This document shows positions 11,053 through 39,166 of a stretch of DNA of 64,000 nt, one piece after another; position 1 is the stretch's first letter; each line of letters starts with the position of its first letter. Location of the stretch: the sequence record NC_014467.1; one strand, given 5' to 3'. Source of the DNA: Escherichia phage RB16. The notes beneath the pieces are model-generated. The model worked only from the letters and a program-made list of their open reading frames with translations. It had not been told where the DNA came from and made no database searches. The position numbers and the translations under genes are program-made.

Positions 11053-11826
11053 ATGGGTATAGGCGGAAGTCTATACCCTCTTCAAAGAGGGGTTTATGAT
11101 ATGGTTGCAAAAATCTCTATAGAACAACGAGAACATCAATTAAAAGAACGTTGTGCGGAATTAGAACTATCTTTTGATGGATGGGTAGACCAATCAGCGA
11201 TCACAAAATATTCAAAGTTTTATGTTGTTTGCAGTAAAGGACATAGAACAGAAAAACAGATCAAACCATTTGTCAACAAAAGTCGTCCAAACGGATGTTA
11301 TTTGTGTTCTCCTAAGATGAAAATATCAAAGGAAAACAGAATCGAGGAAATCAAAACTCTTGCAGATTCAATTGGATATACATTCATAGATTTCGTTGGG
11401 GTGTATAAAGATGCTCACACAAAAATATCAATGGTTTGCGATAAAGGCCATAATTGGGATGTAAGTATAGTTGCTTTTCTCAATCAAGGTCATCGCTGTA
11501 AAAAATGCGCAACGTCTGGGTTCAATACGAACAAACCAGCATACGTATACGTACAATCACTATCTGGAAAATTTCTGAAATTTGGGATAACCAACAGAAC
11601 ACCAAAGAAAAGAATGTGTGCGCAATCAAATAAATCCGTTTATAAACACGAACTGGTTTATCAAAAATTATTCGATAAAGGTATTGATGCAATGAGTATT
11701 GAACAGAAGATCAAACAATCTCTTGTTTGTGGCGTAGTTGATAAATCAGATATGATGGATGGATATACAGAAACAACAGATATATCCAATTACGATAAAC
11801 TGTTGAATATTATAGAAGGAGTATAA
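11053..11826 (+). CDS. Endonuclease-like protein with two zinc-ribbon-like motifs and a GIY-YIG/T5orf172-like C-terminal motif; probable selfish insertion between gp14 and gp15
   Basis: Two Cys/His motifs (C.KGH...GC..C and C.KGH...GH.C..C) followed by PAYVYVQSLSGKFLKFGITNRTPKKR, resembling the T5orf172/GIY-YIG core. No gene occupies this position in T4. Start may be 11101 (better SD). Confidence 0.45.
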   Translation: MGIGGSLYPLQRGVYDMVAKISIEQREHQLKERCAELELSFDGWVDQSAITKYSKFYVVCSKGHRTEKQIKPFVNKSRPNGCYLCSPKMKISKENRIEEIKTLADSIGYTFIDFVGVYKDAHTKISMVCDKGHNWDVSIVAFLNQGHRCKKCATSGFNTNKPAYVYVQSLSGKFLKFGITNRTPKKRMCAQSNKSVYKHELVYQKLFDKGIDAMSIEQKIKQSLVCGVVDKSDMMDGYTETTDISNYDKLLNIIEGV

Positions 11827-11828
11827 AA

Positions 11829-12650
11829 TTGTTTGGATACTGGTATAATAGTTCGCTGCGTAACTACATTGTTCTTATGGGACAATTGTTTAACCATGTT
11901 CAGGTTAAAAGAGTACGCGGCGATCAAGAAAAATTTATTAAGGTTCCAATTACCTACGCATCGAAAGAGAAATTTCTTGCTTCCATGAATAAACTCAACT
12001 ATGCGTATAGTCAGGAAAACGTAGCAAAGACGGAAACCATTTTACCGCGAATGAACCTATCACTGGTCGATCTGCAATATAACGCAATTCGTAAAACCAG
12101 CATAGCGGTCAACCAAAAAATGACGCAATTGCAATCACCCCGCAAGACGATCACACAGTTTAACCCTGTGCCTTATCGTTTAATTTTTGAACTGGGTGTG
12201 TATACGCGATATGAAGACGACATGTTTCAGATCGCAGAACAGATTTTACCGTATTTTCAACCACATTTCAACTGCAAGATTACCGAACTGCATAAGAACG
12301 AAATCACAGTTGACCGAGACATCAAAATCAGTCTCCAGTCGGTTGCACCAGATACAACGTTTGAGGGCGAAGCATCACAGCGCCGACATGTTGAATGGTC
12401 TTTCATGTTCGAATTGCAGGGTTATCTGTACCCGCCTGTTACTGACGTTAAGGGCGAAATCAGAACAGTATACACGGATTTCTTTGCCAATATGAACCCA
12501 TTGGATAAAGATAACTTTGAATCCGTTGATAGTCAAGCCGATCCGGTAGATCTGCCTTTGCAGGATTACACGGGCGAAGAATATATTCAGACGTATTCGC
12601 ACGATAAGCCGATCCCGTCTGGTGATGAACCTCCTAAGCCGAGGGAATGA
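11829..12650 (+). CDS. gp15: Tail sheath stabiliser / tail completion protein gp15
   Basis: 273 aa; N-terminus MFGYWYNSSLRNY and internal YEDDMFQI..QILPYFQPHF match T4 gp15 as recalled; initiates on TTG with AGGAG 8 nt upstream. Confidence 0.9.
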   Translation: MFGYWYNSSLRNYIVLMGQLFNHVQVKRVRGDQEKFIKVPITYASKEKFLASMNKLNYAYSQENVAKTETILPRMNLSLVDLQYNAIRKTSIAVNQKMTQLQSPRKTITQFNPVPYRLIFELGVYTRYEDDMFQIAEQILPYFQPHFNCKITELHKNEITVDRDIKISLQSVAPDTTFEGEASQRRHVEWSFMFELQGYLYPPVTDVKGEIRTVYTDFFANMNPLDKDNFESVDSQADPVDLPLQDYTGEEYIQTYSHDKPIPSGDEPPKPRE

Positions 12651-25231: not shown

Positions 25232-25654
25232 ATGGCTGAACTAAAACTTGAAGATTTACAGGCTGAACTCGAAAAGGATATGTTGATCGACCCTCTGAAA
25301 CTACAGAGTGAATCAGCAGACATTCCTAAGATTTGGTCTAAGTGGCTTCGATATCATTCGAATGCTAAGAAAAAACTGATCCAGCTACAGGCCAGGAAAG
25401 AAGCAGAAGTGAAAGAACGTCTTCTGTATTACACTGGACGGCATGAGACTGAAATGACTGATGTCATTTACACAGGTTCAGGTGAAATTAAGATTGCGAT
25501 CAATGGCGATCCGAAAATTGTTGAGGTTAACAAACTGATTCAGTATTTCGAACTGATTGCAGAATTCACCAGTAAGGCGCTGGACATTGTTAAGAACAAA
25601 GGATATTCTATCAAAAATATGTTGGAAATCCGAAAACTTGAGAGTGGTGCATAA
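25232..25654 (+). CDS. uvsY: Recombination mediator protein UvsY
   Basis: 140 aa; matches T4 UvsY as recalled (LEDLQ.EL.KD..ID..KLQ.E.A.....SKWL..HS..KK, RL.YY.GR, K..G..IK). Confidence 0.85.
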   Translation: MAELKLEDLQAELEKDMLIDPLKLQSESADIPKIWSKWLRYHSNAKKKLIQLQARKEAEVKERLLYYTGRHETEMTDVIYTGSGEIKIAINGDPKIVEVNKLIQYFELIAEFTSKALDIVKNKGYSIKNMLEIRKLESGA

Positions 25655-26134: not shown

Positions 26135-26167
26135 AAAGCCCCTTCCTTTCGGTTGGGGCTTCTTTTT
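26135..26167. terminator. Bidirectional hairpin terminator between the uvsY-side transcript and uvsW.1
   Basis: aagccccttcctttcggttggggcttctttttt; A-rich on the 5' side and T-rich on the 3' side. Confidence 0.6.
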
Positions 26168-26397
26168 TAGAACTTCTCTTCTTCTCCGGTTTCAAGTTCG
26201 GCTTTGAGTTCTTCACGCCGTCCCTTGATCGCGTCACGCATTGAAATGTCATCGGATGCTGCAACTTCAACTTCCTTGACCCGCGTATTGTAATATTTTT
26301 CCAACTCTTTCAAACCGTCCAATGTACGGCACGAAGCAACTTTATTCATGAAATCATCAATTGCGGCTTCGTTAACGAATTCAGTAAAACTTTTCAT
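26167..26397 (-). CDS. uvsW.1: UvsW.1-like small helical protein
   Basis: 76 aa, the same length as T4 UvsW.1, immediately downstream of uvsW; identity not verified by alignment. Confidence 0.55.
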   Translation of the reverse strand: MKSFTEFVNEAAIDDFMNKVASCRTLDGLKELEKYYNTRVKEVEVAASDDISMRDAIKGRREELKAELETGEEEKF

Positions 26398-26406
26398 CTT
26401 AACCTC

Positions 26407-27906
26407 TTAAATTTCTACCTGTTTGATCACGTAGTCGAATCGTTCTTCATTGTAGATCCGCACACGTTCCATAGCATGTTTCATGCCGTAGTTAGTTGCA
26501 CTATATTTATTTTTGGCTGTCTTCGACTTCGCCAGCGTTGCCAGGTTATCGACGATATCCCATACAGTTGCAAGCGCTTTCGAACCATGCTTACGCAACA
26601 CGCGCCCGATCGACTGCTTAACAACAACGGCAGATTTGCAAGGGTGTGCAAAAATGATGTGATGCAGGTTCTTGATTGAAATACCTGTACTCAGTACCCC
26701 GATCGAACCGATTACAATCAAACCCTTTGTTGATTCCGCAATCTTTTTCATTTCGTTGCGGTCGTCAATGTCCGTATCGCCGTTGATCAATACAACGTTG
26801 TCATAAACCTTGCTTAACTTCTCGTACAGCCATTTTCCGTGTTCTTTATACCGGAACATCACGAATGTGTTTTCGTTCTTCTCACGGGCTAATTTAAGCG
26901 CTAATTTTAGAATCCATGCGTTGCGCCGTGTATGGCTTGTAACGTATTTGATTTCAGTCTGGTAGTCTGCACCCTTCAATTTCTTGATCTCTTCTTCTTT
27001 GTACCGAAGGAAGATTGTGTTAATTTTCAGGTTGGTGACTTGTCCATCATCCATCAAACGACGCGTATCAACTGGTTTAAAGACTTTACCGAACGCACCG
27101 ATGTATTGCATCATGTTCGTTTTCCCTTCTTTCAGGGAACCGGATAAACCCAGTTTGAAAATGCACTGATCCATTGTGTCGATAATCTTTTTGATGCTCA
27201 ACCCTGTTGATAGGTGGCATTCATCAACCATCAGGCACATGAACTGCTGGAACCACTCAGCAGGCATTTTAACCGCTGATTGCCAGGTTGAAACATAGAT
27301 TAGCGCGTTGCTGTTCTTAGCAGTACCGGAACGAATACCCAACATTGCCGATTTCGGAAACAGTCGATAGTTTGCGATGTCCTCAATCATTTGGTCAACC
27401 AGCGCCGTAGTTGGAACGATAATCAGCACTTTTCCGCTGTAATGTTCCAGACACCAACGGGAGATAAGACCCTGAATTAGAGATTTACCCGCTGACGTTG
27501 GCAGGTTCAGAACTCCTCGACGGTTTTTGATACCGTGGAATACGGATTCGCGCTGATACCAGTAAGGATCGATCTGTTTGTCACCGTCATAAACTGGATG
27601 CTCGTTAACCCACTTGTCAAAATCTTCTTGCGTGATATCCTCTGTCTCGTGGATCTTCGGATCTACCCAGATTGAATAACCGCGTGATTCTGCGAATTTT
27701 GTTACCAGATAGGCTAACCCATACGGGAGTTTTCCGTTGTAGTCCATCAGGTAAATGTACCCGTTCCATCCACCATATTTGTATTTGGCTTGATACTGAT
27801 AGCCTGGAGGCTGGAATGAAAAATAGTCACGAAGTTCATAGACAATGTTTGCTTCTGCCTGAATCTGTACGTGGCTTGTGTTTAAAAATTTGACTTCAAT
27901 ATCCAC
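26407..27906 (-). CDS. uvsW: UvsW DNA/RNA helicase (SF2)
   Basis: 499 aa; Walker A LPTSAGKS, DECH box; matches T4 UvsW as recalled (ILNLPTSAGKSLIQ, KILIIVPTTAL, GLSGSL.DGKANIMQY.G.FG.IFKPV.T..LM.DGQVT.LKIN.IFLRY, TVWD..D); initiates on GTG. Confidence 0.9.
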   Translation of the reverse strand: MDIEVKFLNTSHVQIQAEANIVYELRDYFSFQPPGYQYQAKYKYGGWNGYIYLMDYNGKLPYGLAYLVTKFAESRGYSIWVDPKIHETEDITQEDFDKWVNEHPVYDGDKQIDPYWYQRESVFHGIKNRRGVLNLPTSAGKSLIQGLISRWCLEHYSGKVLIIVPTTALVDQMIEDIANYRLFPKSAMLGIRSGTAKNSNALIYVSTWQSAVKMPAEWFQQFMCLMVDECHLSTGLSIKKIIDTMDQCIFKLGLSGSLKEGKTNMMQYIGAFGKVFKPVDTRRLMDDGQVTNLKINTIFLRYKEEEIKKLKGADYQTEIKYVTSHTRRNAWILKLALKLAREKNENTFVMFRYKEHGKWLYEKLSKVYDNVVLINGDTDIDDRNEMKKIAESTKGLIVIGSIGVLSTGISIKNLHHIIFAHPCKSAVVVKQSIGRVLRKHGSKALATVWDIVDNLATLAKSKTAKNKYSATNYGMKHAMERVRIYNEERFDYVIKQVEI

Positions 27907-27977
27907 TATGATTACCCTATGTACAAAGTATATAGGTATTTATTGCCTAAATATTGAATAAACACTGGAGATAGACA

Positions 27978-28634
27978 ATGAAAATTGATTACGAATTGGT
28001 AGAAGGGTTCCGTGCTCTGCCTACTAAAGAACAGAAAGGCGCACTGGCTGACTACGCTCAAAGCACCTTCGAAGTAAAACTGAACAAACAAAAATCATTC
28101 GATAACATGCTGGCTGATCTGGAAGCTGCTGTACCAGCGGAAGAAAAACCGGAACTGTTGATTGATTCCCCAGAACCAGAAATAGTTTCGTACACTGGTA
28201 GCTCTATGATGGATGAACCTGTTGTTAACGCTCCGAACATTCCTGATGTGGTTGTCGATGTGTCGCAGGACTTTATGAATTACGTCAAAGAAGTTGCGCC
28301 GGAAGTGGCTGACCAGATTCAATTAGTACCTGATGTTGTAGAAGCTCCTGTAACCGCTTCTGACGAGTCCAAAGCTGATACGGCATGGTTGGATGGTTTT
28401 AGTCCTACCATCGTTCTGATGGGGCGTAGCGCTCGTTCTAACGGCTATTATACGTGTCCCTGGTGGATCTATGATTGGATTAAGAAAAATCCAGATTGGT
28501 ACAAAGATCCTGACCAATGTCCACACTACAGCGCACGGGATACCCTGAAATCGCTGGTGTACTACATCAAGCGTGATGGTCAAGTTACTGTGCGTGAAAC
28601 TCGCAACAGCAGTTTCGACACCTTCAAGTTTTAG
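27978..28634 (+). CDS. Hypothetical protein; C-terminal region shares a PWWIYD motif with the 29689..30192 product
   Basis: 218 aa; acidic, Pro/Val-rich middle; C-terminal CPWWIYDWI. Confidence 0.4.
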   Translation: MKIDYELVEGFRALPTKEQKGALADYAQSTFEVKLNKQKSFDNMLADLEAAVPAEEKPELLIDSPEPEIVSYTGSSMMDEPVVNAPNIPDVVVDVSQDFMNYVKEVAPEVADQIQLVPDVVEAPVTASDESKADTAWLDGFSPTIVLMGRSARSNGYYTCPWWIYDWIKKNPDWYKDPDQCPHYSARDTLKSLVYYIKRDGQVTVRETRNSSFDTFKF

Positions 28635-37732: not shown

Positions 37733-39166
37733 ATGAAAACTTTTAATGAACTGAATAGCATCATCACCTCAACCGATTCCTACAAAGTGTCCCACTGGAT
37801 GCAGTATCCGAAAGGCACTGACGCAGCGATGTTCTATATTGAATCTCGCGGTGGTAAATTTGATGAAGTCGTAACCGCTGGCGTTAACTACGTTGCGCGG
37901 GTTCTCGCTGAACCAATTACCATGAAGCAGGTTGAGTTAGCGCGGGTACTTTACCGTAAACACTTCGGAAAAGAGATCTTTAACTACGAAGGGTGGAAAA
38001 AGATTGCTGAACTGGGTTATACCCCTGTAATTTTCCGTGCGATCCCAGAAGGTACGGTTGTTCCGGTGAAAAATGCCGTTGCGACTGTGTACGCCGAAAA
38101 CGAGTTCTCGTGGCTGGCTGGGTGGCTGGAAACAATGACGATTCGCGGTATCTGGTATCCGTCATCTGTAGCAACGCTATCGCGTGAGTGTAAAAAGGTT
38201 CTGGCACACTACCTTGATATGACTTCTGACCTTACTGGTGAAGCATATAACATCACACTGGGTACACGTCTGCATGATTTTGGGGCGCGGGGCGCGACCT
38301 CTGCTGAATCTGCTGGCATTGGTGGGCTGGCACACCTTTATAACTTCATCGGCACTGATACCGTAGAAGGGATGATTATGGCAATCAGCCTCTTTGCGGA
38401 TTATCAAACACTGTTTGATGAAGTTGAAAACGTAGAAGTGGCTGGGGTTTCCATCCCTGCTCGTGAGCATTCAACTACGATTTCCTACGGTAAAGAAAAC
38501 GAAGACGAAGCATATAAAAACAGCATTGAAATGTTCGGTGATGGGTTCTACGCTTGCGTATACGATTCATGGGACTACAAAGCCGCTGTTGACCGGATCG
38601 ATAGTTATAAAGAGAAAATCATTGCATCTGGCGGTGTGTTGGTAGTGCGTCCAGACTCAGGGGATATGATCGACAACATCATGTACACCTTGCGCAAACT
38701 GGGGCAAATCTTCGGATATACTGTCAACTCCAAAGGGTACAAAGTTCTTCATAACTCTGTTCGTATCATCCAGGGTGACGAGATCCACGGGCCTGAAACA
38801 ATCAACCGTGTATTAAGCTGGATGGAAGCGAACAAATGGTCGAGCGAAAACATTGCGTTCGGTATGGGTGGCGGTTTGCTGCAAGAAGTTACCCGCGATA
38901 CCCAGAAATATGCTGAAAAACTTTGCGCTATCCGTATCAACGGTGTGTGGAAAGGCGTTTACAAATGCCCGAAAGGTTCGGAATGGAAAAAGAGCAAGAA
39001 AGGTTTATTGATGACCATCACTAACGGGATGGAATTCAAGACAATCGATTCTCTCGAAGAATCTATTCCTGTTGGGTGGTTTGATGCGATGGTAACTTAT
39101 TACGACAATGGTTATCTGAACAAAACCAACACTTTAGGGGGAATTCGTGAGCGTAGCCGGATTTAA
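37733..39166 (+). CDS. nadV: Nicotinamide phosphoribosyltransferase (NAMPT / NadV)
   Basis: 477 aa; N-terminal signature TDSYKVSHW and GARGATS...GIGG..H typical of the NAMPT family; this length fits NadV. Confidence 0.85.
   Translation: MKTFNELNSIITSTDSYKVSHWMQYPKGTDAAMFYIESRGGKFDEVVTAGVNYVARVLAEPITMKQVELARVLYRKHFGKEIFNYEGWKKIAELGYTPVIFRAIPEGTVVPVKNAVATVYAENEFSWLAGWLETMTIRGIWYPSSVATLSRECKKVLAHYLDMTSDLTGEAYNITLGTRLHDFGARGATSAESAGIGGLAHLYNFIGTDTVEGMIMAISLFADYQTLFDEVENVEVAGVSIPAREHSTTISYGKENEDEAYKNSIEMFGDGFYACVYDSWDYKAAVDRIDSYKEKIIASGGVLVVRPDSGDMIDNIMYTLRKLGQIFGYTVNSKGYKVLHNSVRIIQGDEIHGPETINRVLSWMEANKWSSENIAFGMGGGLLQEVTRDTQKYAEKLCAIRINGVWKGVYKCPKGSEWKKSKKGLLMTITNGMEFKTIDSLEESIPVGWFDAMVTYYDNGYLNKTNTLGGIRERSRI

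Follow-up and report, generated by a model that had tools for sequence, protein, structure and literature searches.

A probable GTG initiation codon for uvsW in an RB43-like phage and repeated use of GTG at uvsW among T4-like phages

The uvsW region and its neighbours

The window, by which we mean the whole 64,000-nt stretch of DNA that was analysed, carries on its minus strand an ORF for an SF2 helicase; the coordinates of this ORF, of its neighbours and of the sequence signals around its start are collected in Table 1. When the 1.8-kb region of the helicase gene was used as a query (1801 nt), Buttiauxella phage vB_ButM_GuL6 showed 98.6 % nucleotide identity and Escherichia phage RB43 97.9 %. 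The same region is about 90 % identical in Citrobacter phage Miller, in phage Lw1 and in many Enterobacter, Cronobacter and Klebsiella phages. By these identities the source is an RB43-like T4-type phage of the genus Pseudotevenvirus (Straboviridae).

The protein given for the ORF in the ORF list begins MDIEVKFLNTSH, and its first codon is GTG. It matched T4 UvsW (PDB 2OCA) with E=1.6e-183, residues 1–498 of the query lying on residues 1–501 of the chain, and the alignment to the N-terminal fragment of T4 UvsW (1RIF) also ran from residue 1. The Pfam profile UvsW_N (PF21241) was matched by residues 2–82 over positions 1–81 of its 81 (E=1.3e-31, 109 bits with the cut-off at 25.3), and further Pfam domains recognised in the protein were ResIII (PF04851), DEAD and Helicase_C (PF00271). 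A Walker A motif, PTSAGKS, is located at residues 136–142. This motif and the motif II sequence DECH are unchanged in ten diverse UvsW orthologues, with P136-S142 and D228 invariant. The genomic context also fits UvsW, with uvsW.1 directly downstream and inh and uvsY as neighbours. We therefore assign the ORF to uvsW, the gene of a repair and recombination helicase; the first-pass annotation had given it the same name, and the match to 2OCA from residue 1 and the UvsW_N match at residues 2–82 bear this out.

Table 1. Genes and sequence signals of the uvsW region, in window coordinates
Feature	Position	Strand	Remarks
uvsW CDS	26407..27906	-	499-aa SF2 helicase; ORF list, 2OCA match, Pfam
Probable uvsW initiation codon GTG	27904..27906	-	Sequence, ORF, conservation, RB43/GuL6/Miller annotation
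First in-frame ATG (codon 54)	27745..27747	-	Rejected alternative start
Weak Shine-Dalgarno-like AGGGT	27914..27918	-	8 nt before GTG
In-frame TAA closing the uvsW frame upstream	27940..27942	-	12 codons before GTG; inside the promoter motif
T4-type late-promoter-like AATAAATA	27937..27944	-	7/8 matches to TATAAATA; begins 38 nt upstream of GTG
Late-promoter-like CCTAAATA	27946..27953	+	24 nt before the inh ATG
inh (prohead protease inhibitor)	27978..28634	+	RB43, GuL6 and Miller annotation; divergent from uvsW
uvsW.1 (76 aa, conserved small ORF)	26167..26397	-	Pfam PF11637, E=1e-17; annotated in RB43; directly downstream of uvsW
ORF corresponding to RB43-annotated uvsY	25232..25654		RB43 annotation

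With uvsW of RB43 and GuL6 the gene shares the CDS length, the GTG, the leader, the SD and the AATAAATA motif, and it differs from them by point differences only, e.g. Phe7 here and Tyr7 in RB43. T4 UvsW (gene T4p184) is more distant, with about 45 % identity over the first 120 residues and about 50 % over the first 230, but it is collinear from residue 1 (MDIKVHF in T4, MDIEVKF here). T4 likewise combines UvsW_N with the SF2 helicase core and has uvsW.1 next to the gene, and T4 uvsW is a late gene. Unlike the gene described here, T4 uvsW starts on ATG (ggcataatt ATG gat att aaa). T4 also carries the homing-endonuclease gene segE between inh and uvsW (1058..1675 in L004), and STML-198 has an ORF at the same place (1..398 in L020) whose C-terminal end looks similar.

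The spacer between inh and uvsW is 71 bp long and holds the regulatory regions of both genes. The length of inh varies: the gene has 657 nt here, 660 nt in GuL6 as annotated and 921 nt in RB43. In BLAST, RB43 inh aligned in two pieces, 1–365 and 529–921, to the overlapping window stretches 27978..28339 and 28242..28634, and this alignment indicates a protease inhibitor that differs in internal length from that of RB43.

Evidence for initiation at the GTG codon

The minus strand around the start reads ...catagggtaatcata GTG gat att gaa gtc aaa ttt..., and a longer stretch upstream of the same codons reads ...tacatagggtaatcata. The first-pass annotation had proposed that the UvsW N-terminus MDIEVKF is encoded from GTG 27906 on the minus strand, with which both the sequence and the ORF list agree. 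As literal translation of GTG gives V, the M of MDIEVKF is the initiator Met read from this codon. The 11 codons between the upstream TAA and the GTG were scanned in frame and contain no ATG, GTG or TTG; the near-cognates among them are ATA at 27939, 27933 and 27909 and ATC at 27912. The earlier remark that no in-frame ATG lies nearby also stands, since upstream there is none before the TAA and downstream the first is codon 54. The uvsW frame is closed upstream without an AUG, and both the homology and the coding signal set in at the GUG.

The alignments with T4 UvsW and with the UvsW_N profile start at residue 1–2. The substitution pattern was compared in nine relatives (RB43-like, KP15-like and two metagenomic lineages) with UvsW 76–98 % identical. 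After the GTG, 9/49, 4/49 and 41/49 sites were variable at codon positions 1, 2 and 3. In the 72 nt upstream, the corresponding counts by phase were 13/24, 11/24 and 11/24, which is non-periodic, and indels were present. The GTG codon is invariant across all RB43-, KP15- and POP12-like relatives examined, and among GTG-starting relatives 16 distinct upstream/start variants all keep it. Within the RB43/KP15 clade this invariance is not significant alone, as 24 of 64 comparable A/G twofold sites (37.5 %) are invariant too. Alignment with relatives, which had been named as a check in the first-pass annotation, thus places the N-terminus at the GTG, with the codon itself invariant and the periodicity beginning after it.

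Regarding the signals in the leader, the duplex of AGGGT with the anti-SD is weak (−3.9 kcal/mol), and because of this the SD alone separates neighbouring candidate start codons poorly. An AGG-containing SD (AGG or GAGG) was found 6–8 nt before the inferred uvsW start in all lineages compared. T4-type late promoters carry a TATAAATA-like motif some 6 nt before the transcription start, and such a motif, recognised by sequence match, lies close to the gene. The NNTAAATA motif is located at −36 to −38 from the start in most orthologous loci, in ATG and GTG lineages alike. Late promoters of RB43 and its relatives often have A or T at position 1 of the consensus (Nolan et al. 2006), and in T4 a late promoter drives uvsW (Kreuzer and Brister 2010). 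In the account of Derr and Kreuzer (1990) given by Kreuzer and Brister (2010), late transcription dependent on gp55, gp33 and gp45 is shown for T4 uvsW only. In the phage described here, AATAAATA may act as the late promoter of uvsW. Neither T4 nor STML-198 has a TATAAATA motif near uvsW, and therefore their uvsW would be transcribed from further upstream.

Because homology, substitution pattern, SD signal and promoter geometry all agree, we consider it very probable that GTG 27906..27904 is the real initiation codon of uvsW in this RB43-like phage. The GTG start is already in public annotation: the same codon is annotated as the start of a 1500-nt uvsW CDS in RB43 (AAX78755.1), GuL6 (QJI10715.1) and Miller (AIK68162.1). 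Our literature search found no paper linking uvsW with a GUG or GTG start.

Translation might instead begin at the in-frame ATG of codon 54 (27747); the protein would then have 446 aa, and the 53 codons before it would be an untranslated leader. Starts on ATG prevail, being annotated for 60 of the 65 CDS in the RB43 region, and automated pipelines have picked an internal ATG in PhiK2046 (codon 54) and in CHI14 (75 codons downstream). However, codons 2–53 show codon periodicity and clear purifying selection, and they match both the crystallised T4 N-terminal domain, residue by residue, and UvsW_N positions 1–81, so that two thirds of the N-terminal domain would be lost with such a start. Moreover, most orthologues have Leu or Ile in place of Met54, and no SD lies at a usable spacing from codon 54, the best pairing being more than 11 nt upstream. 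Codon 54 is for these reasons a very improbable true start; minor additional initiation there, besides that at the GTG, is conceivable.

Even less probable is a start at one of the neighbouring non-canonical codons, either ATA 27909 or ATC 27912 upstream or ATT 27900 (codon 3) downstream, although all of them are in frame and reachable from the same SD, the ATA being 5 nt from it. In E. coli, AUA, AUC and AUU initiate at about 1–2 % of the AUG level while GUG reaches 10–100 % of it, and about 14 % of E. coli genes use a GUG start (Hecht et al. preprint). The ATA before the GTG is not conserved in POP12, STML-198 and other GTG lineages, whereas the GTG is, and the ATG of orthologues sits exactly at the GTG position or one codon off. 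The GTG could also stem from a mistake in sequencing, or from a recent mutation that inactivated an ATG and left the gene poorly expressed or decaying, as a single A-to-G change turns ATG into GTG. We give this explanation the least credit of all, since all the relatives examined, which were sequenced independently, have the same GTG (RB43, GuL6, Miller, Lw1-like, CfP1-like and KP15-like phages, metagenomic contigs and POP12) and the ORF is intact, with 499 aa, in 9/9 full-length relatives.

Recurrence of GTG at uvsW among T4-like phages

The uvsW start was surveyed at 101 loci: a profile-based scan of IMG/VR supplied 80, and the other 21 were taken from phage records in GenBank and from earlier IMG/VR hits; at each locus we took as the start the codon aligned with the UvsW N-terminus. 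Roughly 1,480 Straboviridae records contain uvsW, and the sample should not be read as an unbiased census. Of its 72 distinct N-termini, 22 begin with GTG and 50 with ATG. After clustering at 10 % distance, 10 of the 35 clusters are GTG clusters. The minimum number of ATG/GTG switches is seven, counted on a neighbour-joining tree with ATG inferred at the root. According to the taxonomy of the records, GTG occurs in Pseudotevenvirus, Gelderlandvirus (STML-198), Marfavirus (PWKp18), Winklervirus (CHI14), Kagamiyamavirus (EcS1) and Biquartavirus (44RR2.8t). The other GTG lineages, for which the records examined list no genus, are KP15-like Klebsiella phages, Pectobacterium phage POP12, Klebsiella phage K65_evo10 with its relatives, two metagenomic lineages and the metagenomic contig L092. 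GTG is annotated as the uvsW start also in 44RR2.8t, EcS1, PWKp18, POP12 and STML-198.

For comparison, 60 ATG, 3 GTG and 2 TTG starts are annotated in the 50 kb of RB43 that match most of the window, and the GTG share of annotated RB43 genes in the region is about 3 %. The divergent gene inh, used as a matched control, starts on ATG in every lineage with a recognisable N-terminus (M.ID..Y...), the lineages with GTG at uvsW included. GTG is clearly over-represented at uvsW in this sample of T4-like phages. This recurrence is the only mildly new point, the GTG start itself being ordinary and already annotated. Like other GUG genes of enterobacteria and their phages, uvsW has a near-cognate start used via the initiator tRNA with an SD 6–8 nt upstream; there is no mechanistic difference from them, and the gene is unusual only in the frequency of GTG (22/72 versus about 3 %).

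The main value of the correct start lies in annotation quality, as it gives the full 499-aa helicase including the N-terminal domain. Because of the GTG, the uvsW start is wrong in at least three public records. In the PhiK2046 record (L015) it was miscalled at the internal ATG of codon 54, with 53 residues lost, and in the CHI14 record (L104) it was miscalled 75 codons downstream, with 75 residues lost. The K65_evo10 record (L019) errs in the other direction: uvsW is called from the ATG of a TATAAAT-ATG promoter motif, 10 codons before the GTG that is preceded by an SD. In the related locus L040 a stop 7 codons upstream removes this ATG from the in-frame candidates.

Helicase expression, the shared spacer and other non-ATG starts

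In the mechanism that we propose, a gp55-type late promoter at AATAAATA (27944..27937) would produce a uvsW mRNA whose leader is about 25 nt long. The 30S subunit would bind the weak SD AGGGT, 8 nt before the GUG, and initiator fMet-tRNA would then decode the GUG, so that the product would begin Met-Asp-Ile-Glu-Val-Lys-Phe, collinear with T4 UvsW from residue 1. With a GUG and a weak SD, translation of uvsW may be reduced, with less initiation than at an AUG and modest synthesis of the helicase late in infection. Unwinding of origin R-loops and branched DNA by UvsW late in infection is known for T4 only (Kreuzer and Brister 2010).

The frequency of GTG at uvsW is far above the rate of the average gene in these phages and could reflect tuning of the helicase level. 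The idea would be that a weak start codon is selected because an excess of a helicase unwinding R-loops and branches would interfere with the change from origin-dependent to recombination-dependent replication. The points behind it are the at least seven ATG/GTG switches at uvsW, with none such at the divergent inh, and they support a dosage limit weakly; against it, T4 and many other lineages use ATG at uvsW. Mean SD energy was −4.9 kcal/mol in GTG lineages versus −4.2 kcal/mol in ATG lineages (p=0.046, uncorrected and without phylogenetic correction). The SDs of GTG lineages are thus not weaker than those of ATG lineages, if anything slightly stronger. The fixed GTG of the RB43/KP15 clade gives by itself no significant sign of selection. 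Compensation of the GTG by a stronger SD was also considered and set aside, the difference being only marginal. Altogether, selected dosage control of the helicase through its start codon seems possible but rather doubtful.

The uvsW leader, which is also the upstream region of inh, contains an imperfect 9-bp palindrome, CCTATGTACAAAGTATATAGG, at 27916..27936, which a scan flagged as terminator-like on the plus strand. In T4 gene e and gene 49 the SD is hidden in long transcripts, and a similar role was considered for the corresponding hairpin of the uvsW mRNA, CCTATATAC-TTT-GTACATAGG (27936..27916), in which the SD would be paired. This candidate was rejected as its stem is AT-rich with a mismatch and has little energy, the predicted fold of −31 to +40 totalling about −10 kcal/mol, and as the hairpin is not kept in KP15-like or POP12 leaders.

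The two late-promoter-like motifs of the spacer, one on each strand and pointing away from each other, are separated by 1 bp within 27937..27953. In many other genera the spacer between inh and uvsW holds TATAAATA-N6-TATTTATA, an arrangement that suggests overlapping divergent late promoters.

We noticed two other non-ATG starts in the window. Gene 15, for the proximal tail sheath stabiliser (11829..12650, plus strand), appears to begin on TTG 11829, which is preceded by the strong SD GAAGGAG 8 nt upstream. Its product starts with MFGYWYNSS, which we take to resemble the N-terminus of T4 gp15. The RB43 gene 15 CDS (AAX78739.1) begins 28 codons further in at a GTG; since this codon is GTA in the window, the RB43 annotation is probably truncated and its GTG a mis-call. 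A homing-endonuclease-like ORF occupies 11053..11826, the place of the annotated mobE in RB43, and stops 2 nt short of the gene 15 TTG. The second case is the homologue of RB43 ORF256, a hypothetical protein, which starts at 39147 on the plus strand with a GTG and has GGGGGA upstream; apart from uvsW, no further GTG start found in the RB43-annotated part of the region is supported.
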